From Bacteroides sp. (GTDB lineage: Bacteria > Bacteroidota > Bacteroidia > Bacteroidales > Muribaculaceae): a stretch of 64,000 nucleotides of DNA. The stretch lies in assembly GCA_014801955.1 (NCBI GenBank), contig JAAVDE010000037.1, forward strand, positions 549 to 64,548, read 5' to 3'. The notes under the pieces were generated by a model. That model was not told the DNA's origin and did no database searches. It saw nothing but the letters and a program-made list of their open reading frames with translations. The position numbers were made by a program, and so were the translations under genes. Positions within the stretch are counted from its first letter, which is position 1. Each line of letters opens with the position of its first letter. Shown here one piece after another: positions 1,851 through 35,241 of this stretch.

Positions 1851-3179
1851 TTAAGGAATGATGGGCTCGGAGATGATGTCGGCCAAGAGGAATGGAATGA
1901 CGCCGATATACATTACGCCGTCATTGTCTGTCCAGGGTTTCTGACTTCCGCCGAGAACTACGATTTTGCGGAAGAAGTCGCCGGTGTGTCTCAGCGAGAA
2001 TGTTTCTTGTTCTTTTTTCTCGGGAGTGTCTATATTTAGGGCAGACTGGATGTAGATTTTGTTGTTCCCGATGTTTACCACAAAGTCTATTTCATATTGC
2101 GACATTTTTCGGACTCCATTGATGCTCTGATGAACTTCAACAACGCCTACATCAACTGAATATCCTCTGCGGATCAGCTCGTTGTAAATCATGTTTTCCA
2201 TCAGATGCGATCTTTCCTGCTGGCGAAAGTTTAACCGCGCATTCCGTAGCCCGAGGTCTGTTGCGTAGTATTTCTGTATGGTGTCGAAATATTTACGTCC
2301 TTTCACGTTCCACCTTTTTGCGCTCTGAAAAAGATATGCGTCTTCTAAATATTCGAGGTAGTTCTTAATTGTGTTGTTCGATGGCTTGTTGCCCATCCGT
2401 GAGCCGGCGGTGTTGGCGAGTTTATTGGGATTTGTCAGTGAGCCAACCGAGGATGACAGTATGTCAACCAAAATATCCAGCAGGCTGTCTCCTCTTAGTT
2501 TATAGCGTTCAACAATGTCTTTGATATACACATTTGAGAATAATCCCTGCAGGTATTTACGTTTTTCCCTTTCGTCGGGTTCTATGGCGGCGGTCGGCAT
2601 TCCTCCATACATCATGTACTCTTCCAACGCTTCGGTCTTATCTTTATTGGCAATCGTCAGATATTCGGCAAACGACAGCGGGAACACCTTGATTTCCGAG
2701 CCTCGGTCTCGGAAATTGGTCACGATGTCTTTGGATAGCATTTTGGAGTTTGACCCGGTCACATAGATGTCGATATTTGGTCGGGTCATTAGGTCACTCA
2801 GAATGTCATAGAAGGTAGTGTAAAGCAGGTCGCGGTCTTCCTCCGGCACTATTGTTTCGTCAATGTCGGAATTTTTGACTTTATACGATAATTGGATTTC
2901 GTCTATGAAAACGTAGTATCGTTTGTTTGCATCTGCGGTATGCTCACTTATGTAGTCAAAAAGCGCATTGGGATTGCGGAATTGTATGTCTGACTTCTTG
3001 TCGAGAGATATTTCAATAAAGCTGTCGCTTGTAATACCTTTGTTGAGCAGCGCTTGTTTGTAGATTGTTGATAATAAGAATGATTTACCGCATCGGCGTA
3101 TGCCGGTAATGATTTTTACCTTGCCATTCCAGCTTTTCGCAATGAGTTGGTTGAGATATTCGGTTCGTTCGATGATCAT
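1851..3179 (-). CDS. AAA+ ATPase of the DUF4143 family (ATP-binding protein)
   Basis: N-terminus MIIERTEYLNQLI..., Walker A GIRRCGKSFLL and Walker B YVFIDEIQ. The C-terminal half is typical of AAA_14/DUF4143 proteins. GC is clearly lower than in the flanking genes. Confidence 0.75.
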   Translation of the reverse strand: MIIERTEYLNQLIAKSWNGKVKIITGIRRCGKSFLLSTIYKQALLNKGITSDSFIEISLDKKSDIQFRNPNALFDYISEHTADANKRYYVFIDEIQLSYKVKNSDIDETIVPEEDRDLLYTTFYDILSDLMTRPNIDIYVTGSNSKMLSKDIVTNFRDRGSEIKVFPLSFAEYLTIANKDKTEALEEYMMYGGMPTAAIEPDEREKRKYLQGLFSNVYIKDIVERYKLRGDSLLDILVDILSSSVGSLTNPNKLANTAGSRMGNKPSNNTIKNYLEYLEDAYLFQSAKRWNVKGRKYFDTIQKYYATDLGLRNARLNFRQQERSHLMENMIYNELIRRGYSVDVGVVEVHQSINGVRKMSQYEIDFVVNIGNNKIYIQSALNIDTPEKKEQETFSLRHTGDFFRKIVVLGGSQKPWTDNDGVMYIGVIPFLLADIISEPIIP

Positions 3180-3275
3180 AGGTGAAGGGGAAAAATATAG
3201 CCGTACTGCAACTTTGGTTGCATGTGCATACAAAGTTGCAGTACAAAGGTAGCGCTTTTTTTCTAATCCGCAAAA

Positions 3276-5000
3276 TTAGAAGAGGGATTTCAGGGGGCGG
3301 GGCGGGGATTGGGCCAGGGCGTAGGCGGCGATGGCACGGGTCATGAGCATGTCGTCGTGGCAGCCGTGGGCGGCTTCGGTTTTTTCGCCGCGGCGAATGT
3401 AGGTTGCCATTTCGTCGATGGCGGCGGCTGAGCGTTCGATCAGGCGGCCGTCGCGCAGGGCATAGGTTAGTTCGAAGATGGCGGCGGCCTTGGTGGCGGC
3501 GTTGGTGTGGAAGCCGATGCGGGTCGACATGGTGTTGGTAACGGTGTCGAACGCCTGGCGGCGGTAGAGGTTGGGGTAGCCGGAGCGGCCGAGCTTTTCC
3601 AGGGCGTGGGTGCCGCGGGTTTCGAGGGTGTTGCTTTCGAAGATGAGCAGGGCGCGATGGTAGTAGCGGCCCAGCGCGCAGGCCAGTGCGCAGAGGCGGT
3701 CAATGTGGACGTGGCCGCGCCATTGGGCAACGACTTCGAGCTGCCCCGGGGTGCGAACGTCGAAAACGGCGATGACGCTCCAGTCGGCGCCCTCCCAGCA
3801 GCCGCCAACGTCGACGGCTATGACGTAGGCCGGCTTGGTTCGCAGTTGGTCGGCGGGGCAGGGGTGAGCCCAGATTTCGAGGCGCCCGGAGGGAGTGGCG
3901 ACGGGGAGGCCGGTGCGTGGGTCGAGTTCGTAGCGACGCGGGGAGGCTGTGTCGGCGCCTGGGCGCAGGCGGCTGAGGTCGGCGGGGTCAAACACGGCCA
4001 GGGCGGTGTTTGAAAATGCCTCGTCGGGGGTCGTCGGGTGTTCGCGCATCATGGCCTGGCGTCCGCCCTGGGCGCGGGTTTGGTTGTGGTACCAGAAGAT
4101 TTGTTCCAGCGTCAGGTTCAGCGGCGGCTCCCAAAGGGCGCGCTCATAGTCGGTCAGCCGCTCCCAGGTTTCGGCCGGCGGAAGAATCAGGCGCTCGCGG
4201 TTGTATTCAACTTCGTGCCAGGTTGCGAAGAGGGCGGTTTTGTCGCTCTCGCCGGCCAGCGCGCGCTGCCACTCGGAGTGGAAATAGTTGCCGGGGCCGT
4301 TGGCGGTGCTTTCCATGATAACCACGCTTTCGGCAACGCGCGGCACTGAACTACACACCGACCGAACCAGCTCCGACGCCTCGGCCGACCCGCGCGAGGG
4401 CCAGTAGGCAACCTCGCTCAGGTGGGCCATCATGTAGTCGGCGCCACGGGCCGCATCGGGATTGCGGGTGGTGCAAACGGTCAGGCGCGAACCGCCGGGC
4501 AGCAGCTCGCGCACGCTGCGCAGCCCGTTGTAGCTAACAATGCGGGGCGGGTCGAGCTCCGGCGGAAAGTTGCGCACAATGTCGTTGATTTGGCCTGACA
4601 GAACCGTTGCGGCCGATTTCTGGTGGGCGCAAATCAGCGAGTGCCAGTTCTCGTGGCGGCGGGTCTGGAGCCACATCAGATAGTGACACACCAGGGTTGA
4701 ACACCCCCATTGGCGCGATTTCAAAACAATCAGCCGCATCGGCAGGCCGGCGCGACGCTGGCGCTCCAGCTCATTGAGAACCTTGCGCTGGGCATTGTTG
4801 AGAACGAACGGAACTCGCCGTCCGGTCAGCTTATGTTTGATTCGGGCACATCGGGCGGCCCAGTACTCAAAGTCTTCGTTCAGCCGCTCGGCCTCGGAAG
4901 GCCAGCGGTCAGAGGGTGCGAGCGGATTGGCCGATACGGCAGACAGCGCGGCATTGCGGCGCAGATTTTCGGCGGTCATTTCGGGAGTCCATTCTTTCAT
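3276..5000 (-). CDS. Phage terminase large subunit-like protein (solitary)
   Basis: Terminase_6-type Walker A LKSRQWGCST, Walker-B-like MAHLSEVAYW, and C-terminal RNase-H-like nuclease signatures (IAVDVGG ... HDDMLMTRAIA). The start is uncertain: ATG 5000 sits 5 nt downstream of a TAAATTTG box, while the alternative TTG is at 5021. Confidence 0.6.
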   Translation of the reverse strand: MKEWTPEMTAENLRRNAALSAVSANPLAPSDRWPSEAERLNEDFEYWAARCARIKHKLTGRRVPFVLNNAQRKVLNELERQRRAGLPMRLIVLKSRQWGCSTLVCHYLMWLQTRRHENWHSLICAHQKSAATVLSGQINDIVRNFPPELDPPRIVSYNGLRSVRELLPGGSRLTVCTTRNPDAARGADYMMAHLSEVAYWPSRGSAEASELVRSVCSSVPRVAESVVIMESTANGPGNYFHSEWQRALAGESDKTALFATWHEVEYNRERLILPPAETWERLTDYERALWEPPLNLTLEQIFWYHNQTRAQGGRQAMMREHPTTPDEAFSNTALAVFDPADLSRLRPGADTASPRRYELDPRTGLPVATPSGRLEIWAHPCPADQLRTKPAYVIAVDVGGCWEGADWSVIAVFDVRTPGQLEVVAQWRGHVHIDRLCALACALGRYYHRALLIFESNTLETRGTHALEKLGRSGYPNLYRRQAFDTVTNTMSTRIGFHTNAATKAAAIFELTYALRDGRLIERSAAAIDEMATYIRRGEKTEAAHGCHDDMLMTRAIAAYALAQSPPRPLKSLF

Positions 5001-5071
5001 GGCCGCAAATTTAGGCCGCAACCCGCCGCCAACATCGTAGAAATTCAGGAAAATTGCTTAACTTTGCAGTC

Positions 5072-6159: not shown

Positions 6160-6783
6160 TTATATTGCGTATTTTACTTGGCCATAGATTGTTGAAATTT
6201 CATGGATCGAGTAGGTCTCACGCTGCTTTTCTTCATCATACGTTTCGGAAAGCACGAAGCGCTCGTTCTTTTTGCGAGGAGAGATTTTAGCTGATTTACG
6301 CATGCAGTCAGAAACAAATAATTCTTTGCTGATACTAATGCGAGGACTATGGTTATCGTAAACAGATGTCCAATATTGCTCAGAGCAATCCAAGTCAGAT
6401 ACATAGGCTACGAACTTCCGTAGCTTATATTTACTTTCCCATTTCGCATTACTGATGGTGAGAGCAAGTACGGGATAGGCGTTGATGGCAGACTTTTGTT
6501 CGTCGGAATATAATTGGACAAAGACTTGTTGGTCGGAGTGAATGCCATATTTTTTCATGGAGTTTCCGCAGACGTATAGTCGCTTGAATCGCGAAACATC
6601 AACGTGCTTTCCATCAACGTTTATTTCTGATATATTCCGCGTAGGTACGGAGTGATATTTCCAGCAAAATTTGTTGACTTTACCGGCTTTGGCCACGGGC
6701 TCTAAATTAAGAACCGCAAGGAGGGTGTAAATCATGCCTGCGGATATGAGTCCGATTATGATGATGAAGCTTATAGTATTCAT
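6160..6783 (-). CDS. Membrane-anchored S24 (LexA/CI-type) serine peptidase-like protein
   Basis: An N-terminal TM helix (ISFIIIIGLISAGMIYTLLAVL) is followed by VCGNSMKKYGIHSDQQVFV. This aligns with the LexA GDSM..GI..GD..VV catalytic Ser block. A candidate general-base Lys lies about 45 aa later (KYKLRKF). The region is low GC. Confidence 0.55.
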   Translation of the reverse strand: MNTISFIIIIGLISAGMIYTLLAVLNLEPVAKAGKVNKFCWKYHSVPTRNISEINVDGKHVDVSRFKRLYVCGNSMKKYGIHSDQQVFVQLYSDEQKSAINAYPVLALTISNAKWESKYKLRKFVAYVSDLDCSEQYWTSVYDNHSPRISISKELFVSDCMRKSAKISPRKKNERFVLSETYDEEKQRETYSIHEISTIYGQVKYAI

Positions 6784-7472: not shown

Positions 7473-9125
<1,653 letters not shown>

Positions 9126-9137
9126 TTATAAACTATG

Positions 9138-9410
9138 TTAATTCAGTATAGCAAGCACGTCGGACTGACGCATGATGAGGAGTTTTTCGCCTTCGATTTC
9201 AACTTCGGTTCCGGCATATTTGCCGAAAAGAACGTTGTCGCCGGCCTTGAGAACCATTTCTTCGTCTTTGGTTCCGGTTCCGACGGCGAGGACTTCGCCC
9301 TTGAGCGGTTTTTCTTTAGCGGAGTCGGGAATAATGATGCCGGCAACGGTAACTTCTTCAGCCGCAGTGGGCTTAATAACGACGCGGTCGGCCAGGGGTT
9401 TGAGATTCAT
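9138..9410 (-). CDS. groES: Co-chaperonin GroES
   Basis: [14 protein letters not shown] ... [18 protein letters not shown], 90 aa, immediately upstream of groEL. Confidence 0.98.
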
Positions 9411-9526
9411 AGGGTATTTTAGGATTAGTTGGTTTATGGATTTTGGTTATGGAATATGCGAAAAGCGTGCCAGCGCTTTCGCGGCTGACATTTTGTCAGT
9501 CTGTTTGTCAAACGCCCGCCGCGGGC

Positions 9527-10039
9527 TTAAAGTTCGAGCAGGCCGCGGGGGAGGTCGAGGTCAACGGTCAGGGCGTCGGAGTCGATTGAGCGGATAAAGT
9601 CGTCGACGGCGGGAATCAGCCGTCCGTCAACGCTGAAATACCATGAGCCGGGAGTCAGTTCAACCAGGTCGTCGACGCGCCCGATGGGGCCGTCGGCAGT
9701 CAGCAGGGTGTAGCCGACCAGGTCGCCGGCGGTCATGTCGCCGCTGACCTCCGAGGGGTCGGCATAGACGTAGATTTGGTGGCCGACCAGGGCTGCGGCG
9801 TCGGAGTCGGAGTCAACGTCGTCGAGGGTCAGCAAAACGGAGTCGGCGCCGCGCGAACGGCAGCCGCCAACGAAGAAGGGCACGTCGAGCCCTTCGATTT
9901 CAAAAATTACGCAGGCGCCGACGGCAAAATCGTCGGCGGGTTCGGCCATGTCGGTGAGCTCAACGTTGAGCTCGCCTTTGATACCGTGGGTTTTCAAAAC
10001 GGTTCCTACGGCCAGTTTTATTTTTCCGGGAGCGAGCAT
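9527..10039 (-). CDS. rimM: 16S rRNA processing protein RimM
   Basis: KLAVGTVLKTHGIKGELNVE (RimM N-terminal beta-barrel) plus a PRC-barrel-like C-terminus. Confidence 0.85.
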   Translation of the reverse strand: MLAPGKIKLAVGTVLKTHGIKGELNVELTDMAEPADDFAVGACVIFEIEGLDVPFFVGGCRSRGADSVLLTLDDVDSDSDAAALVGHQIYVYADPSEVSGDMTAGDLVGYTLLTADGPIGRVDDLVELTPGSWYFSVDGRLIPAVDDFIRSIDSDALTVDLDLPRGLLEL

Positions 10040-10647
10040 CAGCGACGGCGGCGTTTCTTTTTGCGCGGTTGGTTGATTGCCGGAGCTTCGGCGGCGAAGT
10101 CCATCCGGGGCAGGGGCATCGACTCGGAGTCAATCAGAATGTGGCCCTCGGAGAGTTCGGCCAGGTCGTCGTAGACGCGCTTATCCGATGCGGCCTCGGG
10201 GTTTTCGGCAATGAGAAGTTTTTTCATCTGGCAGGCCAGCAGGTAAACGAACTCGTCGCGGTCGGGGTTGGCGGGGTCCATGGCAATGGCCGTGTCGATG
10301 AGCTTGATGATGTTGATGCCGTAGACGCGTTTCGGAATCACGCTCTGCGGCAGAGGCAGCGTGTCGGGGCGGGTGCGCAGGGTTTCGGCTGTGATGACCG
10401 GCACGGGCCAGTCAATGTCGAGCTTGAAGCCGGCCATTATTGCCAGGTGGTCCCAGAGTTTGGCACGCCACTCGGGGTTGGTTCGCTGCTGGGGGTGGAG
10501 GCGGCAGATGGTGTCGATAATCGCGCGAGCGCAAGCGTTGCGCTCGTCGCGATTTTCGAGTGTCAGACAGTAGTCAACCATCTGCTGGACGTTGCGCCCG
10601 TATTCGGGCATGGCCAGCGTTGAGTGATGGGTGTTGTATTGCAGCAT
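10039..10647 (-). CDS. DUF4290 domain-containing protein
   Basis: LAMPEYGRNVQQMVDYCLTLENRDERNACARAII matches the conserved DUF4290 N-terminus as I recall it. There is a 1-nt overlap with the rimM start. Confidence 0.7.
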   Translation of the reverse strand: MLQYNTHHSTLAMPEYGRNVQQMVDYCLTLENRDERNACARAIIDTICRLHPQQRTNPEWRAKLWDHLAIMAGFKLDIDWPVPVITAETLRTRPDTLPLPQSVIPKRVYGINIIKLIDTAIAMDPANPDRDEFVYLLACQMKKLLIAENPEAASDKRVYDDLAELSEGHILIDSESMPLPRMDFAAEAPAINQPRKKKRRRR

Positions 10648-10656
10648 AGTTGGGGA

Positions 10657-11403
10657 TTACATGTTCATGCCGCCGTCGACCTGGATAACCTGGCCGGTAA
10701 CGTAGCTCGACATGTCGGATGCCAGGAAGGTGGCAACGTCGGCGATGTCTTCGGGCTTGCCGCCGCGGCGCAGGGGAATTTTGGTACACCATTCCTGACG
10801 AACGGCTTCGGGCAGGGCGGCAGTCATTGCGGTTTCAATGAAGCCGGGGGCGATTGCGTTGGCGCGGATGCCGCGGCTGCCTACTTCCTGGGCGATAGAC
10901 TTGGCCAGGGCAATGAGGCCGGCCTTCGACGAAGCGTAGTTGCACTGGCCTGCGTTGCCGTGAACGCCAACGACCGATGCCATGTTGATAATCGAGCCGC
11001 CGCGCTGTTTCATCATAACGGGAACTACGGCCTTGCAGAAGTTGAAGGCGCTTTTGAGGTTAACGGTGATAACGGCGTCCCACTGCTGCTCGGTCATGCG
11101 CATCAGCAGGCCGTCCTTGGTAATGCCGGCATTGTTGACCAGAATGTCGATGCGGCCGAAATCCTTAACGACCTGACCAACGACCTGCTGGGTCTGCTCG
11201 TAGTCGGCGGCGTTGGAAGCGTAGGCTTCAACCTTAACGCCGAGGGCAGCGATTTCAGCTTTGGTAGCTTCGCCGTTTTCGTCGATAACGAGGTCGGTGA
11301 AAGCGATATTGGCGCCCTCCTGGGCGAAACGAACGGCCAGAGCCTTGCCGATGCCGCGGGCGGCGCCGGTGATAAGAGCGGTTTTTCCTTCGAGAAGTTT
11401 CAT
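10657..11403 (-). CDS. fabG: 3-oxoacyl-[ACP] reductase FabG
   Basis: The SDR motif TGAARGIGKA, the NNAGI motif and the YASSKAG catalytic motif are present. Length is 248 aa. Confidence 0.9.
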   Translation of the reverse strand: MKLLEGKTALITGAARGIGKALAVRFAQEGANIAFTDLVIDENGEATKAEIAALGVKVEAYASNAADYEQTQQVVGQVVKDFGRIDILVNNAGITKDGLLMRMTEQQWDAVITVNLKSAFNFCKAVVPVMMKQRGGSIINMASVVGVHGNAGQCNYASSKAGLIALAKSIAQEVGSRGIRANAIAPGFIETAMTAALPEAVRQEWCTKIPLRRGGKPEDIADVATFLASDMSSYVTGQVIQVDGGMNM

Positions 11404-11414
11404 GTTTTGGAGAA

Positions 11415-12038
11415 TTATGGGTTTAATGTTGATGAATTAGTTGCTTGGGATGGGTTGGCGGCGCCGGCGCGCAGGCCGTCGATTATGAAGTCGATGCTTT
11501 CGCGGTGCCAGCGGTCAAATTTTTCCTGCTCGGCCTGACACATCATAGTCCAGTCCGTTCCGCGGATCAGCATTGTCAGCGCCGAATTGGTGCGTGCGGC
11601 CTGAACCGGGTTGAACTCGCCGGAGGCAACGCCGCGCCCCAGGATTTCATTGATCAGGCAGTAGAGGCGGCCGGTAACCATCTGGCGGATTGCCAGCGAG
11701 CGCTTAACGTTTGGCGTAAACAGCGATTTATACCAGACCTCATAGTGGCTGGCCTGGGTGCGGGCAATGTTGATTCGGAAATCTATCAGGGCCCGGAGCT
11801 GAGCCGTAGCGTCGGTTTGGGCGGCGATAGCGTTTTCCAGGTCGCTGAGAATCTTTTGGGCCTCGTTGCCGACCACGGCCTCGAAAATCTCGTTTTTCGT
11901 GCGGAAATAGGTGTAGATAGTGCGGCGTCCGCGGTCAGAGGCGGTCGCAATGTCGTTCATCGTTGTCTTTTCAATTCCTTGGCGGAGAAAGAGTTGACGA
12001 GCAACGTCGATTAATCGTTCGCGAGTTCGTGAGGCCAT
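11415..12038 (-). CDS. TetR/AcrR family transcriptional regulator
   Basis: N-terminal HTH RERLIDVARQLFLRQGIEKTTMNDIATASDRGRRTIYTYF. ATG 12038 is chosen because the TTG at 12050 lies inside the TAAATTTG -7 box (12048-12055). Confidence 0.85.
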   Translation of the reverse strand: MASRTRERLIDVARQLFLRQGIEKTTMNDIATASDRGRRTIYTYFRTKNEIFEAVVGNEAQKILSDLENAIAAQTDATAQLRALIDFRINIARTQASHYEVWYKSLFTPNVKRSLAIRQMVTGRLYCLINEILGRGVASGEFNPVQAARTNSALTMLIRGTDWTMMCQAEQEKFDRWHRESIDFIIDGLRAGAANPSQATNSSTLNP

Positions 12039-12091
12039 TTCCAACCGCAAATTTACTAAAATTCTTTCAATCTCGCAACTGCGTGAGTTGA

Positions 12092-12751
12092 CTACGTCAG
12101 GTTAATAACGTTGGTTTCAAACAGTTGGAACCCCATTCGGGCAATGGATTGATTTGCAACGGGAACGGGGTCGGGCAGAATCTGATATGGCATCATGAAG
12201 GCCGCGCCCATGTCCAGGGGTGTTTGGAGTTCGATGCAGCCTTTGGCTGATATGTAGCCCACTCTGTTGGCGAAGCCGGCAATGTATTCCTTAACGGAGG
12301 GGATGGTGAAGAAAAATCGGAGGGTATTGAGGATTTGGGTAACGGCTTTGTGGCGTTTGCTGCCGATGTGGCCAGTCGATAGTTCGTGGACTATGAAATA
12401 GCTATGGTCGCCGGATTCTTCAGGCGTGTAAACAATAAAGTCCGGGCGACTCATGCCTTGCGCCCAATCTCCCTCGGCTATGCGAAATTGATTGAGGTAT
12501 TCTTCGTATCGGATGAAGCGCAGCGTTAGCCCTGACATATTGATACCTGACCTATTGATATACGTTGCATCGCCGTTGCCTGTCGGACGTTTCGCCGAGC
12601 CTCCGATTCCCTTAACGTCAATAATGTCGAAGGTGGTATCGTTAATGTCTTCAAAGGGTACTACGGCCTGATTCGGGAATGCATATTCCAGCTTTCCGGA
12701 ACGTTGGGCGTTGATAGCGTCAACTACGTCGTTTTGCAGCAGTCCGATCAT
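12092..12751 (-). CDS. Hypothetical protein with a possible PD-(D/E)xK nuclease-like core, partner of the upstream ATPase
   Basis: The motif string is E83/E84 ... RPD104FIVY ... YFIVHE123LSTGHIGSK132RHK135AVTQIL. The start overlaps the ATPase stop (TGATG). The region is low GC. Confidence 0.45.
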   Translation of the reverse strand: MIGLLQNDVVDAINAQRSGKLEYAFPNQAVVPFEDINDTTFDIIDVKGIGGSAKRPTGNGDATYINRSGINMSGLTLRFIRYEEYLNQFRIAEGDWAQGMSRPDFIVYTPEESGDHSYFIVHELSTGHIGSKRHKAVTQILNTLRFFFTIPSVKEYIAGFANRVGYISAKGCIELQTPLDMGAAFMMPYQILPDPVPVANQSIARMGFQLFETNVINLT

Positions 12752-13899
12752 CAGTGCTTCAGTGAATTATATTCCCGGTAAATCTGCGCTATCGGATCGG
12801 ACAGAGCGGTGGCATTGATGAGTGCATCGCCGTTGCTGACGATGTTGAGTTGCGTGAGCGTCCCTCCGTCAACCAAATATGCGTCGATATTTTCGGAACT
12901 CAACTGCGTCCGTTCTTCGATGTTGTTGCTGCTGCGTGCGATTAGTAGATTCAGGTAATTGAGAATATATGGACTGTGGGTTGCTATCATAAGCGACATT
13001 TGGTAGGGGTGTTCCATTGCGAAACATCTGTTTACCAAAAAATCCATCAGTCGGGTTTGATTGTCGGGATAGAGGCTTAGTTCCGGCTCCTCGATGAAAA
13101 TGTGGACGCGCCGGTTTGGAAATTCGCCGACGTTCATGCCCGCACGAAAGTTTTTCAGGTCATCGTTGTCGGTAAAATACTTGAAGAGGGCACTGTTGAG
13201 CGAATCTTCCAAATTATAGTGCATTGCATAGTACTGGATAATAACGCTCAGCGGGGTGGCCGTTTGCATGCCTGAAGAGGCATTGCGCAAGTTGATATTG
13301 AAACTACCATCAGTTCCGCGACCAATTATGCGGCATTGAGGTCCGGCATTTTTGCTTTTTTCAACCTTCAGGTCAACGTCGAGAAAGTCAAGCGATAACT
13401 CTGCTACGGACTTCAATGCCGTTCTGAAGTTTTCGAGAGTGTCCTGGAGATAGAAATTGTCGCGGTGGCGGTCAATGCTGCTCGATAGAATATCGGGAAT
13501 AATAGAGCGTTTGTCGCTGATGAAGCAGATTTTTTCGAGGCTAAGGTCGTTGGGCGCAATTTCGCTGACGTTGACGCGCGTTGTTCGCCGCTCAAGTTTG
13601 ATTTCGTATTTTCCGTTGCGGTAAACTATCTTTGAATCATCTTTGAGATACTCAGCCATACCGGAGGTTTTTAGCAGAGGGAGGGTCTTGAAGCCAATGC
13701 GGGTGTTGCGTATGCCTGAGTGCTTGATAAAGGAGCGGAGATTCACGCGCTTATACATCCAGCGAAACAACGATAGAACTTTCATTATCGTGCTCTTACC
13801 GCTGCCTGATTCTCCGATCAATACCGTTAAAGGCCTTATGTCGGCCAGCTCGGCATAGTCTATTGGACCAAAATTTTCGATTTTAAGATATTCTGCCAT
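12751..13899 (-). CDS. ABC-type (AAA_15/AAA_21-like) ATPase
   Basis: Walker A GESGSGKST, signature ASSGMQ, Walker B HIFIEEPELSLYP and H-loop ATHSP. The start is set at ATG 13899 (MAEYLKIENFGP) because the TTG at 13923 lies upstream of the predicted transcription start of the TACCTTTG box (13929-13936). Confidence 0.75.
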   Translation of the reverse strand: MAEYLKIENFGPIDYAELADIRPLTVLIGESGSGKSTIMKVLSLFRWMYKRVNLRSFIKHSGIRNTRIGFKTLPLLKTSGMAEYLKDDSKIVYRNGKYEIKLERRTTRVNVSEIAPNDLSLEKICFISDKRSIIPDILSSSIDRHRDNFYLQDTLENFRTALKSVAELSLDFLDVDLKVEKSKNAGPQCRIIGRGTDGSFNINLRNASSGMQTATPLSVIIQYYAMHYNLEDSLNSALFKYFTDNDDLKNFRAGMNVGEFPNRRVHIFIEEPELSLYPDNQTRLMDFLVNRCFAMEHPYQMSLMIATHSPYILNYLNLLIARSSNNIEERTQLSSENIDAYLVDGGTLTQLNIVSNGDALINATALSDPIAQIYREYNSLKH

Positions 13900-13928
13900 A
13901 AATAAACTTGGATAATTGCTCAATAGCG

Positions 13929-13936
13929 CAAAGGTA
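13929..13936 (-). promoter_or_regulatory. Bacteroidota -7 promoter box (TACCTTTG) for the ATPase/partner pair
   Basis: Exact TAnnTTTG match, about 30 nt upstream of ATG 13899 and immediately downstream of the preceding terminator. Confidence 0.55.
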
Positions 13937-13937
13937 G

Positions 13938-13966
13938 AAAAAAAATCTGAGATTTCGGGAAATCTC
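13938..13966 (-). terminator. Rho-independent terminator of the upstream flippase-like gene
   Basis: On the minus strand: GAGATTT-CCCG-AAATCTC hairpin, then AGA, then T8. Confidence 0.7.
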
Positions 13967-14007
13967 TTGCCGTAAAGAGAAAAAATAGTGGCCGGACTGC
14001 GGGTTGG

Positions 14008-14973
14008 TTAGCGGGAGCTGAGGAGGAGGTGGAGGAAGGTGTAGAGGCCCAGGAGGATGTTTAGCAGGGTGTTGGCGCCGAGGTTGAGGGTGGCGAAGAC
14101 CAGGGCAACGGGCTGGGGAATGTCGTAGAGGCCGCTCAGGGCGAGGATTACGGCGTATTGCCAGGGACCGATGCCGCCGTTGCTGGGAATGGCCATTGCC
14201 AGGGAGCCGAAAACGAAGGTTAGCATAACGGCGCCGGGTCCCAGATGGGCCGTTGGCGGAAAGGCGGCCATCGAGAGGGCCATTGAGGCGATGTAGCCGC
14301 CCCAGATTCCGAGGGTGAGCAGCAGCCACAGGCCTTTGCGGGGCATGCTGAAAATCAGGATGAATCCGCGCCAGGTTTTTAGCAGGAATTGGCGGATTCG
14401 GCGGCTAAAGGGGTCGTTGGCGAGGGCCAGGTAGAGCGCGGCGGCGGCAATCAGGGCCACTCCGACCCAAAGGATAGTGGCGCCGGGCAGCCCGCCGGCG
14501 GGTGCAGCGGCGCCGATAAAGCGGCTCATCGCTCCGGCCGAGAGCGATAGGGCGGTCAGCGAAATGAGGCCGACCATGAGCGTGTCGGCCAGGCGGTCGG
14601 CGACCATAGTGCCGAACACCGACGAGAACTCGGCGCCGGCAGTGCGCGAAATGTAGGCGCAGCGCCAGAACTCGCCCAGGCGGGGAAACACGAGGTTGAC
14701 GGCGTAGGTGCCGAAAATTGAGCGGCTCATCACGCCCAGTCCCGGGTTAACCCCGGCGGCGCGCAGCTGCAGGCGCCAGCGCAGGCCGCGACATATCATT
14801 GCCGCGACGTTGGCCAGCAGGAAGAGCACGACCGGCAGCGGAGAGCATTGGCGGGCGCCGTTGAGAAGGGCGCCCAGGTCGAGGTCGGCATATAAAACGC
14901 GACATAACCCCACGGTGATTACCGGTGGGATTATGTACGACAGGATTTTTTTTAGCGGGAGTTTAGTCTTCAA
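14008..14973 (-). CDS. Flippase-like / lysylphosphatidylglycerol-synthase TM-region (UPF0104) membrane protein
   Basis: Polytopic membrane protein with an MprF-C/UPF0104-like pattern (RGLRWRLQL, FGTMVADRLADT). No ATG is available downstream of the lpxA stop. The proposed start is the TTG at 14973 (MKTKLPLKKILSYII), which overlaps the lpxA stop. Confidence 0.6.
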   Translation of the reverse strand: MKTKLPLKKILSYIIPPVITVGLCRVLYADLDLGALLNGARQCSPLPVVLFLLANVAAMICRGLRWRLQLRAAGVNPGLGVMSRSIFGTYAVNLVFPRLGEFWRCAYISRTAGAEFSSVFGTMVADRLADTLMVGLISLTALSLSAGAMSRFIGAAAPAGGLPGATILWVGVALIAAAALYLALANDPFSRRIRQFLLKTWRGFILIFSMPRKGLWLLLTLGIWGGYIASMALSMAAFPPTAHLGPGAVMLTFVFGSLAMAIPSNGGIGPWQYAVILALSGLYDIPQPVALVFATLNLGANTLLNILLGLYTFLHLLLSSR

Positions 14974-15754
14974 CAACGTCGAGATGGGCGCCAACAACGC
15001 GGAGGTTGTTTTCGCGGATAAAGTTGAGAATGGCGTCGCGGTTCTCGCCGGGGTTAACGTCGGCTTCGATGCGCTTGAGGGCGTTGAAAACCGAGGTGCC
15101 CGATTGGTAGAGGTGGCGGTAGGCCTTGGCGATGTCGTCGATTTCATCGTCGGAGAAGCCGTGTTTCTTCATAATCCAGGCATTGATGCCGAAGAATTCC
15201 GCGGGGTTGTGGGCGATGATAACGAACGGGGGCACGTTTGAGCCGATTCGGCAGCCACCTTTAACGACAGCCCATTTGCCAACGTGGCTGCGTTCGTGGA
15301 GAATCACGTTGGAGGAGAGGATGGAGCAGGTGTCAACGACTACGTCGCCGGCCAGGGTTGCGCCGTTGCCAACAACGACCTTGTCGCCGATAACGGTGTC
15401 GTGGCCGATGTGGCTCTTGGCCATGATGAAGCAGTCGGAGCCGATGCGGGTGCCGTTTTCGGGGGTAATGCCGCGGTTGATGATAACGTTTTCGCGGATA
15501 ACGGTGTTGTCGCCAACGTAGCAGAAGGTTTTTTCGCCTTTCCAGCGGAAGTCCTGGGGGTCGGCGCCGACGATGGCATATTGGTAGACTTTGCAGTTTT
15601 TGCCGATGCGGGTGCCGGCCATTATGCTGGCATAGGGCATAACAACGGTGTTGTCGCCGATTTCAACGTCGGCATCAATGAAGGCAAAGGGGCTGATGGT
15701 AACGTTGTTGCCGATTTTTGCGGCGGGGTCAACGTGGGCTTTGTCGGAAATCAT
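14963..15754 (-). CDS. lpxA: Acyl-ACP--UDP-N-acetylglucosamine O-acyltransferase LpxA
   Basis: Left-handed beta-helix hexapeptide repeats (IGNNVTISPFAFIDADVEIGDNTVV...) and an LpxA C-terminal helical domain. Length is 263 aa. Confidence 0.9.
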   Translation of the reverse strand: MISDKAHVDPAAKIGNNVTISPFAFIDADVEIGDNTVVMPYASIMAGTRIGKNCKVYQYAIVGADPQDFRWKGEKTFCYVGDNTVIRENVIINRGITPENGTRIGSDCFIMAKSHIGHDTVIGDKVVVGNGATLAGDVVVDTCSILSSNVILHERSHVGKWAVVKGGCRIGSNVPPFVIIAHNPAEFFGINAWIMKKHGFSDDEIDDIAKAYRHLYQSGTSVFNALKRIEADVNPGENRDAILNFIRENNLRVVGAHLDVVED

Positions 15755-15758
15755 TTCG

Positions 15759-15865
15759 GTAATTAGTTATGGTTAATTAGTAATTAGTAATTTCTGCAAT
15801 CGATAATCGGTAGCCGGCACTGTAATTGCCGATTACTGATTACCGATTGCCAATTGCTAATTGAT
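15759..15865. repeat. AT-rich heptamer array (TAATTAG and degenerate YYRATTR units) filling the TolC-like/lpxA intergenic gap
   Basis: GTAATTAG at 15759-15766. TTAATTAGTAATTAGTAATTT at 15773-15793. Six degenerate heptads CCGATTA CTGATTA CCGATTG CCAATTG CTAATTG at about 15822-15865. Confidence 0.8.
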
Positions 15866-17266
15866 TCAGCGGCCTCCGCCGAGCGACTGATAGAGGTTGA
15901 TGACTGCGCGCGAGCGGGCGAGCTGGCAGTTGATGAAGTTCATTTGGCTGCCCAGGAGGTTCTGTTGCGCGGTGATGACCTCGAGATAGGTCGTGTTGTA
16001 GTTCGTGGCCGAGTTGAGGAAGAGGGTTTCGGTGATGTCAACGGCGCGGGTCATGTGGTCAATCTGCGCCGACAGGTGTTTTTCCTTTTCCAGAGCGTTG
16101 GTGTAGGTAACGAGCGCGCTGCCGATTTCGCCAGAGGCCTTCATCAGAGTGTACTCAAACGTGTTGAGGCTCTGTTGCTGCTGGGCCTTGGTTGCCTTGA
16201 GTCGGGCAATGTTCTGGCCGCGGGCAAAGAGCGGAGCGGTCAGCTGGGCGCCGAGGTTGAGGAACCATTCGCCGGGGTTGAAAATCATGCCGCCCAGCGA
16301 GTTGGTGAAGCCGCCGGTGGGAGAGATCGACAGCGACGGATAGAAGGCGGCGCGGGCCGAGTTGGTGGCGTAGTAGGCAATGGCCAGCTGGCGTTCCTGG
16401 GCGCGCACGTCGGGGCGGTTGGCCAGGGCAACCATCGGCACTCCGGCATTGAACTCGGCGGGGAGCTCGATGCTCAGGCCGGCGGGAATGGCCCAGGTCT
16501 GGGGCATTTCGCCGAGCAGCAGCGACATGGTCGTGTTCATTTCGTGGAGGTTGGTTTCCAGGTCGGCGATGGAGGCGAGGATGCTTTCATATTGCGCCTG
16601 GCTTTGAACAACGGCGGCTGCCGTTGTGTTGCCGGCTTCCCAAACGGCCTTCATCATGTCGATTGTCTTGGCCCAGTTGGCGGCGGTTTCGCGCTGGAGG
16701 TCGAGCTGGGTTTCCAGGGCGGAGATGGCATAGTAGCTGTTGGCCACGGCGCCGATAATCTGCGATTTAACGGCCTGCTCGTAGTCGAGGCTCATGCGAT
16801 ATGCTTCCTCGGCGGAGCGTTTGTTGTTGAGGATTTTGCCGAACACGTCGATTTCCCAGCTGACGCTCAGCGGAATCTGGTAGGTCCAGCTCATCGAGGC
16901 GTTGGGCAGCGAGGTCGTCGAGCCGGCGCCGTTGGGAGCCAGTGCAACCGAGGGGAGGTAGCTCAGGCGGGCGCCGAGCATGTTGGCGTGGGCAACGTCG
17001 ATGTTGAGCTTGGCGTTCTTCAGGTCGGTGTTGTTCTGCAGCGCCTTGTTAATCATGTCGGCGAGCACCGGGTCGGTGAATACCTGCTGCCAGGGCAGGT
17101 TGCCCAGGGCTGTCGAATCGACCTCCTGGGCCTTGGCCTGAACATAGTCAGCGCCGAGGGCCGATTCGGAGGGCATTTCGAACTTCTTATAGATATGGCA
17201 GCTGGTGGCAGTGGCCGCCAGGGCCACTGTCAGGGTGAATGCTGCGAATTTATTCAGAGTTTTCAT
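15866..17266 (-). CDS. TolC/NodT-family outer-membrane efflux lipoprotein
   Basis: Lipoprotein signal LAATATSC, then two OEP repeats. It is the last gene of the adaptor-RND-OMF operon. Confidence 0.88.
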   Translation of the reverse strand: MKTLNKFAAFTLTVALAATATSCHIYKKFEMPSESALGADYVQAKAQEVDSTALGNLPWQQVFTDPVLADMINKALQNNTDLKNAKLNIDVAHANMLGARLSYLPSVALAPNGAGSTTSLPNASMSWTYQIPLSVSWEIDVFGKILNNKRSAEEAYRMSLDYEQAVKSQIIGAVANSYYAISALETQLDLQRETAANWAKTIDMMKAVWEAGNTTAAAVVQSQAQYESILASIADLETNLHEMNTTMSLLLGEMPQTWAIPAGLSIELPAEFNAGVPMVALANRPDVRAQERQLAIAYYATNSARAAFYPSLSISPTGGFTNSLGGMIFNPGEWFLNLGAQLTAPLFARGQNIARLKATKAQQQQSLNTFEYTLMKASGEIGSALVTYTNALEKEKHLSAQIDHMTRAVDITETLFLNSATNYNTTYLEVITAQQNLLGSQMNFINCQLARSRAVINLYQSLGGGR

Positions 17267-17275
17267 TGTTGGAGA

Positions 17276-20200
17276 TTAGCGTGAATATTGTTCAATTTCA
17301 GCACCGATGCCGGCGTTGTTGGTGTCTTCCCATTTCAGCGGCGAAATCTTTTCCTGAATCTTCTGGAAGATTACGAAGAGCGCCGGAACGAAGATGAGCT
17401 GCAGAATCATGCCGATCAGCATGCCGCCGATGGAGCCGGTGCCGAGGGCGCGGTTACCGTTGGCGCCGACGCCGTGGGAGAACATCAGCGGCAGCAGGCC
17501 GATGATGAGGGCGATGGAGGTCATCAGAATTGCGCGCAGACGGGCCGATGCACCCTGAATGGCGGCGTTGATGATGCTCATGCCGGTGCGGCGGCGTTCG
17601 AGGGCGAACTCAACGATCAGGATTGCGTTCTTGGCGAGCAGACCAATCAGCATGATCAGCGCAATCTGGAAGTAGATGCTGTTCGAGATCGAGAAAATCT
17701 GGGCGAACACGAACGAACCCATCAGGCCGAACGGAATCGAGAGAATAACGGCGAACGGAACGATATAGCTCTCATACTGGGCCGACAGCAGCAGGTAAAC
17801 GAACAGCAGGCAGAGGCCGAAGATGATGGCGGTTGAGTTCGAGCTCTGGGTCGATTCTTCGCGGGTCAGACCCGAGTAATCATAGCCGAAGCCGGGAGGA
17901 AGCGTTTGCTTTGCCACCTGGGCAATGGCTTCCAGAGCCTGGCCGGAGGAGAAGCCTGCGGCGGGAGTACCGGTAACGGAGATTGAGGTGAACATGTTGA
18001 AGCGGTTCAGAAGGTCGGGAGCATAGGTCTTTTCAAGAGTGATGAAGTTGCTGACCGAAGCCATCTGGCCGGTTCGGCTGTTGCGAATCTTAATGAGGTC
18101 GAGCGTTTCGGGGCTAACGCGCGATTCGGCCGGAGCCTGCATCATTACGCGATAGATTTTACCGAAGCGGTTGAAGTTCGAAACATACATGCCGCCATAG
18201 TAGCCCTGCAGGGCGGAGAGAATCTGCGAGGGGCTGAGGCCGGCCTGTTTGACCTTAGCGGCATCGATGTCGATGCGATATTGCGGGAAGGTGGGGTTAA
18301 AGGTCGTGTAGGCCGTTTGGATTTCGGGGCGCTGGTTGAGTTCGGCCAGGAAGTTCTGAACTATGGCATAGAACTCGTTAACGTCGCCGCCGGTTTTATC
18401 CTGCATCTTCAGCTCGAAACCGTTGGTTACGCCGAAGCCGGAAATCATTGGCGGAGCGAAGGCAACGACGCGGCCGTCTTTAACGACCTGGGCGGTGGCG
18501 CCGTAGATCATTCCGAGCACTGCGTCGGAGCTTTCGGCTGCCGAGCGCTGGCTCCAGTTTTTCAGCTTGAGGATGAAGGTGCCGTAGGTCGAGCCCTGGC
18601 CGGCGATGAACGAGTAGCCGACAATCTGCTGCGAGTATTCAACCGCGGGGATTTTGCTGAGAACGGCCTGCACCTGGTTCATGGTTTCGATGGTGCGTTC
18701 CTGGGAGGTGCCCGGAGGCATGTCGACCATGCAGAAGAGCGTGCCGGTGTCTTCGTTCGGAACGAGTTCGTTAGGCGTTGACTTCATCAGCCAAACCAGA
18801 ATAACGACCGCGATAACAACGGCGATGAGCGACGTGATTTTATGGTTCATGAAGAACTGCGACCATTTCTTGTAGTTGCGCTGCAGTTTTTCGAAAGTGC
18901 GCTCGAAGGCGTCCTTGAACTTGCGCGAGAACAGGCCGATGAGGGCCAGAATGGCAACTACGATGGCAACGATGCTGACCGCGGGGTTCTCGAAGTTAAA
19001 CGAGCCCAGAACCATGAACACGATGGTTGCAAGCAGCAGCAGGGAGGTTACCCAGGCGGGGAACACGAAGCGGCTCTTCATTGACTTGGCAGCGCCGGAA
19101 ACGTTCTCCTTGACGCGCGCGCCGAGCGTTGCGTTGGAGTGGTCCTCCTCGCCTTTGTGGGGTTTGAGGAACACGGCGCAGAGTGCCGGCGACAGGGTCA
19201 GAGCGTTGATAGCCGAGAAGGCGATGGCCATTGCCATTGTCAGACCGAACTGGCGGTAGAACACGCCGGCCGTGCCCGACATGAAGCTCACAGGAATGAA
19301 CACCAGCATCATTACGAGGGTAATCGAAATGATTGCGCTGCCGATTTCGCCCATGGCGTCGATGGCGGCCTTGCGGGCGCTCTTGTAGCCAACGTCGAGT
19401 TTGGCGTGGACCGCTTCGACGACAACGATGGCGTCATCGACCACGATGGCGATTGCCAGCACCAGTGCCGACAGAGTGATCAAGTTAACCGAGAAGCCGA
19501 TCATCGACATGCCGAAGAACGTGCCGATAAGGGCAACGGGGATGGCGATGGCGGGAATAATGGTTGAGCGGATGTCTTGCAGGAACAGGTAGGTCACGAG
19601 GAACACCAGGATGAAGGCCTCGATGAGAGTTTGAATAACGTGTTCAATCGAAGCATAGAGGAAGTCATTGTTGTTCATCGGAATTGCGAAGTCGAGGCCC
19701 GGGGGCAGGTCGGACTTCATTTTGTTAACCTCGGCCAAGCAATCGTTGATAATCTGGGTTGCGTTGGAGCCGGGGGTCTGGAACACCATTGCAAACGATG
19801 AACCATAGCCGTTGAGCTTGTTGGCGAAGCCATAGGTCACGCGGCCCATTTCAATGTCGGCAACGTCCTTGAGATAGAGAACGTCGCCGTTGTCGGAGGC
19901 GCGGACAACGATGTTTTCAAACTCTTCGGGGGTTTGCAGGCGGCCTTTGTAGCGCAGGGTGTACTCGAAGCTCTGGTTGCCCTGCTGGCCAAACACGCCC
20001 GGAGCGGCCTCCATGTTCTGCTCGGCGATGGCCGCAGCGATGTTGCTGGGCTCCAGGCCGTATTGCGCCATGACTTCGGGCTTGATCCAGATACGCATCG
20101 AGTAGTCGGCGGCCATACACATTACGTCACCAACGCCCGACACGCGCTGCAGCTGCGGAACGACGTTGATTTTCATGTAGTTGTCGAGGAATTCGGGCGA

Positions 20201-20650
20201 GTAAACGCCGGTGGTGTCATAGAGAGCGACGCCGACCAGCATTGAGCTCTGGCGCTTCTTGGTCGTTACGCCCACCTGAACTACTTCGGCCGGAAGCAGG
20301 TTGGTTGCGGCGCTGACGCGGTTCTGAACGTTAACGGCTGCCATGTCGGCGTTGTAGCCCTGTTCGAAGGCAACGGTGATGGTCGCGGAGCCGTTGGAGG
20401 TAGCGCTGGATTCCATGTAGGTCATGCCTTCAACGCCGTTGATGCTCTCTTCCAGAGGGGCGATGACGGAGTTGAGCACGGCCTGGGCGTTAGCGCCGGG
20501 ATATTGCGTTGATACCTGAATGGTTGGCGGCGCAATGTCGGGGAATTGCGTGATGGGGAGCGACACGAGGCCGATTATACCCAGCAACACAATGAATATT
20601 GAAATTACCGTCGATAGTACCGGGCGGTTAATAAATCTCGAAAGGTTCAT
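17276..20650 (-). CDS. RND efflux transporter permease (AcrB/HAE1-like), 1124 aa
   Basis: [28 protein letters not shown]..., with the characteristic 2x(TM + large periplasmic loop + 5 TM) layout. It also carries an extra hydrophobic insertion in the central cytoplasmic loop. Confidence 0.95.
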
Positions 20651-34731: not shown

Positions 34732-35241
34732 TTATTTTCTTCTTCGAGGTTGAGGTCCTTTGGGCGCCGCCGGCTCGTAGGCCTTCAGTCCCATATCACC
34801 GGTGAAGATTTCAACGGTGATATTATATGCTGCATAATATTTTGCCACTGCAACGATAAGTGCATCTCCAAACGATTGTCCGGCCAAGGCGGTTTCTTTC
34901 CATGCTGACAGCGTTTTCTTCAGAGCTTCAGAGTCTATTAAGCCTGATTGCTCAGTAAATGCCGCCCACGGAACGTTGCCGTCAATCGCATTTTCAATGT
35001 GTTCCACAAATGAGTTGACAACATCGTGTTTGTCTCCATGAGCCTGGGCAATGTGATTGCCGGTTTCGATGATAGATGTCAACGGCATAATAAGGGTAGA
35101 GCCGGCTTTGATTTCGGAGTCAATTTTTTGTTTGACTGAATCGAATGTCCATCTGTTGCCGTCGGGGCCGCATGTTTCTTTGCCGGGTACTCGTAGCCAG
35201 ACACACAGTATGCTCGTGTCGAGGATGATAGCCTTTCTCAT
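34732..35241 (-). CDS. PIN-like domain protein (putative nuclease), partner of the upstream ATPase
   Basis: Four acidic residues lie in canonical PIN order and spacing: D8 (AIILDTSIL), E59 (IIETGNH), D126 (FGDALIVAVA) and D149 (IFTGDMG). The ATG overlaps the ATPase TGA (ATGA). The region is low GC. Confidence 0.55.
   Translation of the reverse strand: MRKAIILDTSILCVWLRVPGKETCGPDGNRWTFDSVKQKIDSEIKAGSTLIMPLTSIIETGNHIAQAHGDKHDVVNSFVEHIENAIDGNVPWAAFTEQSGLIDSEALKKTLSAWKETALAGQSFGDALIVAVAKYYAAYNITVEIFTGDMGLKAYEPAAPKGPQPRRRK

Follow-up and report, generated by a model that had tools for sequence, protein, structure and literature searches.

What is the function of the two-gene cassette at positions 12092-13936 of a 64,000 nucleotide stretch of Bacteroides sp. 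DNA (Muribaculaceae; GenBank assembly GCA_014801955.1, contig JAAVDE010000037.1, positions 549 to 64,548; the whole stretch is called the window below)? The cassette consists of a gene for an ATP-binding cassette (ABC)-type ATPase (gene A) and a gene for a 219 amino acid protein (gene B), which an original prediction, made by inspecting the DNA, had interpreted as a sensor ATPase paired with a nuclease effector. The interpretation reached here, to which we assign a probability of roughly 0.7, is that the cassette is a horizontally acquired ABC-ATPase + nuclease pair directed against phages or other mobile elements, and that it is a divergent member of the candidate defence family PDC-M29.

The 382 amino acid ATPase was predicted to carry the motifs GESGSGKST, NASSGMQ, HIFIEEPELSLYP and ATHSP. 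All four are present, and their cores (GESGSGKST, SSGxQ, IEEPELSL and THSP) were invariant across seven orthologues whose overall identity was just 39-72%. In Pfam the protein matched AAA_15 (E = 2.5e-17, 64 bits, cut-off 32.1) and AAA_21 (3.8e-15, 57.2 bits, cut-off 27), whereas the NCBIfam matches were at the P-loop level only. The top PADLOC model was PDC-M29A (PDLC04562; 5.2e-39), with residues 4-332 aligned to positions 3-335 of the 410 position profile. Weaker matches were obtained with AriA (1e-19) and NsnB (2e-17), then with HEC-01A, PtuA, GajA and Old, and the match to the HEC-02A model was weak (1.7e-12). When three orthologous ATPases from other contexts were scanned, the best model was again PDC-M29A (4e-37 to 3e-50), and for all four ATPases its margin over AriA, NsnB, HEC-01A and PtuA was about 20 orders of magnitude or more. 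The sole match among PDB sequences was to the N-terminus of the OLD nuclease (6p74, E = 0.008).

The protein encoded by gene B had no direct match in Pfam, PADLOC, NCBIfam, PHROGs or the PDB sequences, and NCBIfam (June 2026) contained no model for either cassette protein. A word-indexed search yielded ten clusters only (46-100% identity). The profile built from these ten clusters retrieved 152 proteins (E <= 1e-3) from 1.84 billion representatives, nearly all of them stand-alone proteins of about 200 amino acids; a repetitive 1004 amino acid protein (P0070) was set aside as a false positive. The relatives are labelled 'hypothetical protein' in every source that names them, and the named hosts belong to the Bacteroidota: Muribaculaceae and Bacteroides metagenome-assembled genomes, Bacteroides fragilis, Flavobacterium, Myroides, Capnocytophaga and Chitinophagaceae. 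The 113 full-length relatives were scanned one by one and aligned (mean column identity 20%). One of the two PDC-M29B models, PDLC04563, was matched by 48 of them (best 4e-13) and the other, PDLC04564, by 10, and a few relatives gave weak matches to the PDC-M47B, HEC-02B (three relatives, best 3.6e-4) and PD-T4-4_B models. Alignment of the clade containing the window protein with a distant clade by hhalign gave 99.7% probability (E = 2.5e-26, 190 columns). This distant clade has the canonical ExK motif and includes proteins matching PDC-M29B (P0091, 1.4e-7; P0107, 5e-5). Because A matches PDC-M29A, and because the B family includes matches to PDC-M29B that are linked to the window clade by hhalign, the pair can be placed in PDC-M29 as a divergent branch. 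The original prediction had allowed for a known system; the pair does fall within a catalogued PADLOC candidate, but the window B protein escapes both of its PDC-M29B models, as do its nearest relatives P0011, P0012 and P0019. For this reason PADLOC 2.0 is expected to miss the system in the window.

Co-occurrence of the two genes had been put forward as a means of judging whether they belong together. Gene A was found directly upstream of gene B, on the same strand, in ten out of ten lineages of the B family (the window, P0002, P0008, P0009, P0010, P0027, P0082, P0175, P0215 and P0102), and the ATPase was in each case an AAA_15 protein of 381-394 amino acids. The genes overlap in six lineages, the overlap being 1 bp in the window and 4 bp in the other five (L001, L003, L006, L008, L044/L045), and are separated by 1-16 bp in the remaining four (L043, L010, L030, L005); in contigs from strains of the same species the overlap is 1 bp. 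The flanking genes differ among the ten lineages, except in the case of L005 (the P0010 contig) and L030-L034 (the P0175 loci), which share an identical gene on each side. The pairwise identities of A and B are correlated (Pearson r = 0.83, eight pairs), the ATPase being the more conserved partner. A and B are thus a conserved, co-inherited unit.

A PD-(D/E)xK-like core had been suspected in the B protein, and both residue conservation and the order of elements in the AlphaFold2 model speak for it. The model computed with the 113-sequence alignment had a predicted local distance difference test (pLDDT) score of 93.6 and a predicted template modelling (TM) score of 0.89, with all five models above 91; it superseded an earlier, poor model derived from ten sequences (pLDDT 62). 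DSSP assigned a helix to residues 82-87 (containing E83), a short hairpin to residues ~90-95, a strand to residues 105-108 with D104 just before it, a long strand to residues 118-128 (with E123-L-S125) and a long helix to residues 129-148 (with K132, K135 and Q139), followed by a helix at 151-158 and a strand at 162-170. In this model the order of elements fits the restriction-endonuclease core, which runs from a helix through three strands to a second helix and a further strand, and the predicted catalytic residues occupy the places expected of that fold. Position 83 is acidic in all 113 sequences (E in 74, D in 39), D104 and E123 are each conserved in 98% and Q139 in 99%, position 143 is Ser or Thr in 89%, and D104 and E123 are 13-19 residues apart. 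Of the residues that the original prediction had pointed out, those at positions 83 (as an acidic residue), 104, 123 and 139 are therefore kept in 98-100% of the family, whereas E84 and K135 are not conserved family-wide; in the close family, E83, D104, H122-E123-L124-S125, K132, K135 and Q139 are invariant. Judged by the model and by conservation, B very probably has the PD-(D/E)xK fold, and the predicted active site consists of E83 (helix), D104 (strand) and E123 (strand) together with K132, beside Q139.

The lysine had been described as displaced from the ExK position, and this was confirmed in an informative way by the 113 homologues. Position 125 is Lys, giving the canonical E-x-K, in 31 sequences, all of which lack K132. 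In the other 82 sequences position 125 is Ser, Thr, Cys or Ala, and 73 of them have K132; the window copy, with E-L-S and K132, is of this second type. Moreover, hhalign pairs the 'HELS' of the window clade with the 'ELK' of the other clade. Since K125 and K132 are mutually exclusive and the two motifs are aligned, the catalytic lysine of the family appears to come either from the strand (K125) or from the following helix (K132). Relocation of the lysine has precedent within the PD-(D/E)xK superfamily.

Further indications came from searches with family members of the ExK type. Of these 31 proteins, 13 matched the type I restriction nuclease domain HSDR_N_2 of Pfam at E <= 1 (best 0.0012, all sub-threshold), and the match of the single member viewed in detail spans the D..ExK..Q stretch. 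No other Pfam family recurs in more than two ExK-type members. Among the B relatives there was one weak match each to SduA_C and BsuBI_PstI_RE, which we take to be families of PD-(D/E)xK nucleases. The Foldseek lists obtained with the high-confidence model, all below significance, consist mostly of PD-(D/E)xK enzymes (BstEII, BamHI, BsoBI, Nt.BspD6I, Mus81, XPF, arenavirus cap-snatching endonucleases, the McrBC complex, Can2, T7-endonuclease-I-like proteins and UL24); FokI and FAN1 appeared with the low-confidence model only. From Foldseek, only the make-up of these non-significant lists was used, as weak support.

These data bear on the possibility that B is not a nuclease at all, its conserved acidic residues, lysine and glutamine serving another purpose (for example sensing a ligand or nucleotide, or acting in an unrelated hydrolase), with a superficial resemblance to the nuclease core. 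Such a protein would explain why no significant structural or sequence match to a characterised nuclease was obtained, and why there are invariant residues for which the nuclease core offers no explanation (F41, D45, G60, N66, F185 and F208, all outside the classic core). It would not explain why the motifs come in an order and at a spacing that suit the fold, why they are located on the expected secondary-structure elements of the model, or why the ExK lysine and the helix lysine alternate strictly, and recurrent HSDR_N_2 matches together with Foldseek lists rich in PD-(D/E)xK proteins are hard to get by chance. We regard a non-nuclease B as very unlikely. Four of the residues outside the core (F41, D45, G60 and N66), which are 93-98% conserved in the 113 homologues, belong to an N-terminal beta subdomain (window ~12554-12631). 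The family consensus also has Cys at position 165 (90%) and at position 103 (70%, which makes 'RCD'); at these positions the window protein has G165 (12257-12259) and P103 (12443-12445), and its close relatives have P103 and C165.

The pair was compared with the systems that it most resembles. In PDC-M29, as in the window, an ABC ATPase gene is followed on the same strand by the adjacent gene of a protein of about 200 amino acids, in the same order and with the same sizes; window A matches PDC-M29A, and window B is homologous to PDC-M29B at the superfamily level. Window B differs in missing both PDC-M29B models, and its branch in having Ser at the position of the ExK lysine together with the helix lysine. 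The likeness to the HsdR N-terminal (HSDR_N_2) and RecB-family nucleases lies in the D...E-x-K core followed by a helix with a conserved Gln. In those nucleases the helix after ExK carries a QxxxY motif, whereas in the B family it reads Q139-x3-[ST]143, with Ser or Thr replacing Tyr. B also lacks the helicase/translocase domain of HsdR, and about 75 N-terminal and about 50 C-terminal residues have conserved positions of their own. With HEC-02 the cassette shares the combination of an ABC ATPase and a stand-alone PD-(D/E)xK nuclease (predicted in the window) encoded by two genes, but HEC-02B is a NERD nuclease whereas window B belongs to an unnamed family and has no HEC-02B match, and the window ATPase is far nearer to PDC-M29A than to HEC-02A. 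PARIS, too, consists of a sensor ATPase and a separate nuclease, and AriA is the second-best PADLOC match of the window ATPase. The PARIS effector AriB is, however, a Toprim/DUF4435 protein, and window B has no Toprim, DUF4435 or AriB match; furthermore, at an assumed ~110 Da per residue the 53-55 kDa AriA would be about 100 residues longer than the window ATPase. The ATPases of Septu, OLD and Gabija fall in one AAA_15/AAA_21 clade with the window ATPase (matches of 1e-8 to 1e-9 to PtuA, GajA and Old). Yet PtuB of Septu is an HNH nuclease whereas window B has no HNH or PtuB match, the PtuA matches are partial, and the fused Toprim domain of OLD and GajA is absent from the window pair. Because the effector domains of these systems are missing from the partner protein, membership of the pair in PARIS, Septu, Gabija/OLD or HEC-02 was rejected.

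The layout of the cassette is summarized in Table 1.

Table 1. Positions of the features of the cassette in the window.
Feature	Position	Strand	Basis or remark
Gene A, 382 amino acid ABC-type ATPase (AAA_15/AAA_21), PDC-M29A relative	12751-13899	(-)	open reading frame, Pfam and PADLOC matches
Walker A GESGSGKST, residues 29-37	13789-13815	(-)	invariant in 7 orthologues
ABC signature-like ASSGMQ, residues 207-212	13264-13281	(-)	S208, S209, G210, Q212 invariant
Walker B / D-loop region HIFIEEPELSLYP, residues 266-278	13066-13104	(-)	I269-E270-E271-P272-E273-L274-S275-L276 invariant
H-loop ATHSP, residues 306-310	12970-12984	(-)	T307, H308, S309, P310 invariant
TGATG, overlap of A stop and B start	12749-12753	(-)	read from the sequence
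Gene B, 219 amino acid predicted PD-(D/E)xK-fold nuclease, divergent PDC-M29B relative	12092-12751	(-)	open reading frame, profiles, model
Predicted catalytic core of B	12335-12505	(-)	conservation in 113 sequences and model
E83, predicted catalytic residue	12503-12505	(-)	
D104, predicted catalytic residue	12440-12442	(-)	
E123, predicted catalytic residue	12383-12385	(-)	
S125, predicted catalytic-core residue	12377-12379	(-)	
K132, predicted catalytic-core residue	12356-12358	(-)	
Q139, predicted catalytic-core residue	12335-12337	(-)	
TACCTTTG, predicted Bacteroidota -7 type promoter motif (TAnnTTTG)	13929-13936	(-)	30 nt 5' of the ATPase ATG
TAAATTTG, TAnnTTTG motif marking the cassette's downstream boundary	12048-12055	(-)	within the 50 bp that precede the TetR gene
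Weak element resembling a terminator, following the LPG_synthase_TM gene	13938-13966	(-)	hairpin 13949-13966 and U8 13938-13945

The product of gene A begins with MAEYLKIENFGP (382 amino acids counted from the ATG). An alternative TTG start would extend the gene to 13923; as the seven orthologues begin at the equivalent Met in the alignment, the ATG was fixed as the start. The overlap of the two genes is exactly as predicted: base 12751 is common to the TGA of gene A (12753-12751) and the ATG of gene B (12751-12749), an arrangement that suggests translational coupling. Both promoter motifs that had been noted, TACCTTTG in front of the cassette and TAAATTTG in front of the TetR gene, are in place, and the motif TAnnTTTG is enriched in the window (49 occurrences, 23.5 expected); TACCTTTG presumably acts as the promoter of the cassette. 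The terminator that was said to precede it could not be upheld. The element in question, a 7-bp AU-rich hairpin with U8 after it, has a centroid energy of -5.9 kcal/mol and a z score of -0.31, which is no better than that of shuffled sequences, and a terminator scan of the window made no call there.

Where did the cassette come from? It is, as had been noticed, richer in AT than its surroundings, with a guanine + cytosine (GC) content of 0.47-0.50 as opposed to 0.56-0.66 in the flanks on both sides, a difference of about 10 points. It was also predicted to be inserted between a TetR gene and a flippase-like gene. One neighbour does encode a TetR_N protein and the other an LPG_synthase_TM membrane protein (Pfam), but no empty site was found among relatives of the flanking genes. 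In all relatives of the TetR gene (L012-L014) other genes lie upstream of TetR; FabG follows TetR in L012 and L014, and after FabG L014 has open reading frames that resemble, in size only, the DUF4290 (PF14123), RimM and GroEL genes of the window. An exact look-up of the TetR product gave no match. The LPG_synthase_TM gene likewise has relatives (L027-L029), of which L028 retains the block upstream (TolC-like, LpxA-like), and the genes downstream of LPG_synthase_TM in L028 and L029 differ from those in the window. Since the relatives of both neighbours have other genes on the cassette side, the cassette lies exactly at a synteny breakpoint. No direct or inverted repeats were found to flank it, and carriage by a transposon was rejected on this ground. 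Eight contigs (L035-L042) encoding an identical FabG product were taken to represent the same species, and the cassette is present at the same place in all of them. B alleles of 219 or 214 amino acids were called in seven of these contigs, which come from different samples; in the eighth, L039 (GCA_014800205.1), the calls of both cassette genes and of GroEL are truncated, a sign of possible frameshifts or errors in the assembly. The drop in GC content, the synteny breakpoint and the presence in all eight contigs together indicate an old horizontal acquisition, fixed throughout the species, rather than an island that varies among strains.

Could the pair then be a housekeeping DNA repair or recombination couple, in which an ABC/SMC-like ATPase and a structure-specific nuclease cooperate in the manner of SbcCD or RecF/RecN? 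Repair commonly involves PD-(D/E)xK nucleases, the cassette has housekeeping genes beside it and is fixed in the species, and the N-terminus of the ATPase gives weak RecN and SMC_N matches. The latter are, however, confined to the Walker A region (residues 2-45), and because only this P-loop region matches, a RecN/SMC-type repair function was rejected. There is neither a coiled-coil insertion nor an Mre11-type partner, and the closest family matches of the ATPase are all defence ATPases. The family is small (the 152 representative clusters mentioned above), its named members are restricted to the Bacteroidota, its locus differs in most lineages examined, and the composition of the cassette is atypical for the host. 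A repair couple is thus highly improbable.

In other genomes the pair occurs in different settings. In Flavobacterium crassostreae (CP017688.1) it has McrBC on one side and a complete type I restriction-modification (RM) system on the other, and in L003 nSTAND1 and TIR_2 genes are located 3-6 kb from it; in Capnocytophaga it is solitary, as in the window. The Bacteroides pair (WP_120470786.1) was seen on 849 contigs of human-gut Bacteroides. In the Bacteroides loci L030-L034 it occupies the left edge of an integrative element (locus ~8300-20600) found at different chromosomal sites, which also carries genes for Toprim primase, Hc1, HTH_17, Pribosyltran, NYN and ThiF / Prok-E2 / Prok_Ub; the latter set resembles ubiquitin-like defence systems. 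The pair is mobile between genomes and sometimes enters defence islands.

The pair might instead be a selfish module for addiction or competition between elements, with a toxin-like nuclease restrained by the ATPase mainly for the benefit of the carrier element rather than the host; the cassette in the window would then be a stranded remnant. The position of the Bacteroides pair at the very edge of an integrative element fits such a module, as do the HTH_17 and D5-type primase genes near the pair in F. crassostreae, the GC content of the cassette, which is below that of the host, and the fact that Pfam AAA_21 is named after a type IV toxin-antitoxin toxin. On the other hand, there are no adjacent mobility genes in the window, in Capnocytophaga or in several metagenomic contexts, and both genes are intact, with all motifs, in seven of the eight strain contigs (the calls in L039 being truncated). 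The mechanism would be nearly the same as in defence, the difference lying only in the beneficiary. We consider an addiction module unlikely, though less so than the repair couple or the non-nuclease B.

If the preferred interpretation, a defence pair of the PDC-M29 type, is correct, the two proteins may work like those of better known systems. In PARIS, AriB is set free once a phage trigger has been sensed. Until then the ATPase AriA, assembled with the nuclease AriB, serves as a scaffold that keeps hold of it (PMC11464382), and another report gives a sensor of the ABC ATPase type plus a nuclease effector as the core common to OLD, Gabija, PARIS, Septu and Lamassu (bioRxiv 10.64898/2026.07.10.737580). 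HEC-02, composed of an ABC ATPase and a NERD PD-(D/E)xK nuclease, protects against phages and needs both genes for this (bioRxiv 10.1101/2024.01.29.577857). By analogy with PARIS, Septu and HEC-02, A and B would form a complex in which the ATPase keeps the nuclease inactive. The cue of infection sensed by the ATPase might be a protein of the phage, a DNA structure or an altered nucleotide state; sensing would release or activate B, and the freed B would cut nucleic acid of the invader or of the host. It is from such analogies that we infer complex formation, nuclease activity, the division into sensor and effector, and the defensive role of the pair.

Several observations weigh against this interpretation. 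PDC-M29 is one of 145 'phage defence candidates' obtained by guilt-by-embedding and is listed as untested (Payne et al., bioRxiv 10.1101/2024.01.29.577857); in the supplementary table of the same work it appears as cassette CAS_00123 (FAM_00005>>FAM_02872), counted 110 times. No paper mentioning PDC-M29 turned up in a literature search. The cassettes that served to define the family lie within BREX, DISARM or type I RM loci (bioRxiv 10.1101/2024.01.29.577857), whereas the window copy sits among housekeeping genes, outside any RM, BREX or DISARM locus and away from any defence island, and its presence in all eight strain contigs is without the strain variability typical of defence genes. Window B matched no PADLOC model even at E <= 1, and neither plasmid and phage tblastn searches nor scans of viral contigs found relatives of the B family. 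With regard to the nuclease, Foldseek gave no significant match with either model of B (best E 0.6 in PDB and 0.1 in BFVD, TM score <= 0.27), profile searches of the PDB sequences with two alignments (A2 and A4) returned chance matches only (a periplasmic binding protein and the kinesin KIF1A), and the placement of the predicted active site was judged from the DSSP order of elements in the model.

Other genes of the window were examined as well. The original prediction had noted a second ABC-ATPase pair with a different effector at 34.7-36.4 kb. This module (34732-36431, minus strand), which lies beside the gene of a DnaG primase and encodes proteins of 397 and 169 amino acids, corresponds to PADLOC PDC-M07 (A, 5.6e-130; B, 5.4e-44); its ATPase resembles the cassette ATPase at the Walker level only, and the two partner proteins are unrelated. 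The 169 amino acid partner has no Pfam match, and by eye the ILDTSIL near its N-terminus looks PIN-like. The ATPase-DUF4435 fusion that was also reported could not be found, as none of the open reading frames scanned contained DUF4435. It is probably the 460 amino acid AAA_14 + DUF4143 ATPase encoded at 1851-3233 (minus strand), which matches the single-gene PADLOC candidate PDC-S01 (2.3e-108). A RecD/PIF1-like helicase with AAA_30 and UvrD_C_2 domains (37775-39160, minus strand) matches PDC-M16A (2e-95). The density of such modules in the window, to which attention had been drawn, is thus reflected in many PADLOC matches, but all of these are to candidate families without tests.

Some further open reading frames lie on the minus strand around the cassette. 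A 581 amino acid frame at 3276-5021, between TsaD and the PDC-S01-like ATPase, has no Pfam (E <= 1e-5) or PADLOC match. A 207 amino acid frame at 6160-6783, between the GroEL and TsaD genes, likewise has no Pfam or PADLOC match and varies among strains: it is present in L035, L036, L039 and L041 and missing from L037, L038, L040 and L042, where GroEL adjoins TsaD. The frame of the LPG_synthase_TM gene (14008-15147) was mechanically called as 379 amino acids and overlaps the LpxA-like gene. As the gene starts later in related contigs (301-327 amino acids) and the Pfam match begins only at residue 73, the low-complexity N-terminal 50-75 residues of this frame are probably untranslated.

A more far-reaching proposal would be that the Bacteroidota-wide family is a genuine and mechanistically distinct defence system, characterized by the relocated lysine (K132), by Ser or Thr in the ExK position, by an extra N-terminal subdomain with invariant D45 and N66 and by a substrate or mode of activation unlike those of PARIS, Septu and HEC-02. 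The N-terminal subdomain could then form a second site, for ligand binding or contact with the ATPase, and a tRNA or RNA target or activation by a nucleotide signal could be given as examples. We regard this proposal as unlikely. If it is true, the family would amount to an immune module that is common in the gut microbiota and has gone unrecognised until now, because the branch of WP_120470786.1 is present on the 849 human-gut Bacteroides contigs mentioned above.

Pairs of an ABC ATPase and a nuclease are a major theme of bacterial immunity, as illustrated by OLD, Gabija, PARIS, Septu and HEC-02. What is added here is a branch of PDC-M29 that current PADLOC models miss, the assignment of the B family to the restriction-endonuclease fold, with predicted catalytic residues that can be mutated and a natural relocation of the catalytic lysine, and the range of the family across several lineages of Bacteroidota, including the abundant Bacteroides of the human gut. 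The general view of how such systems work is left unchanged; the findings are of use for annotating the genomes of gut Bacteroidales.

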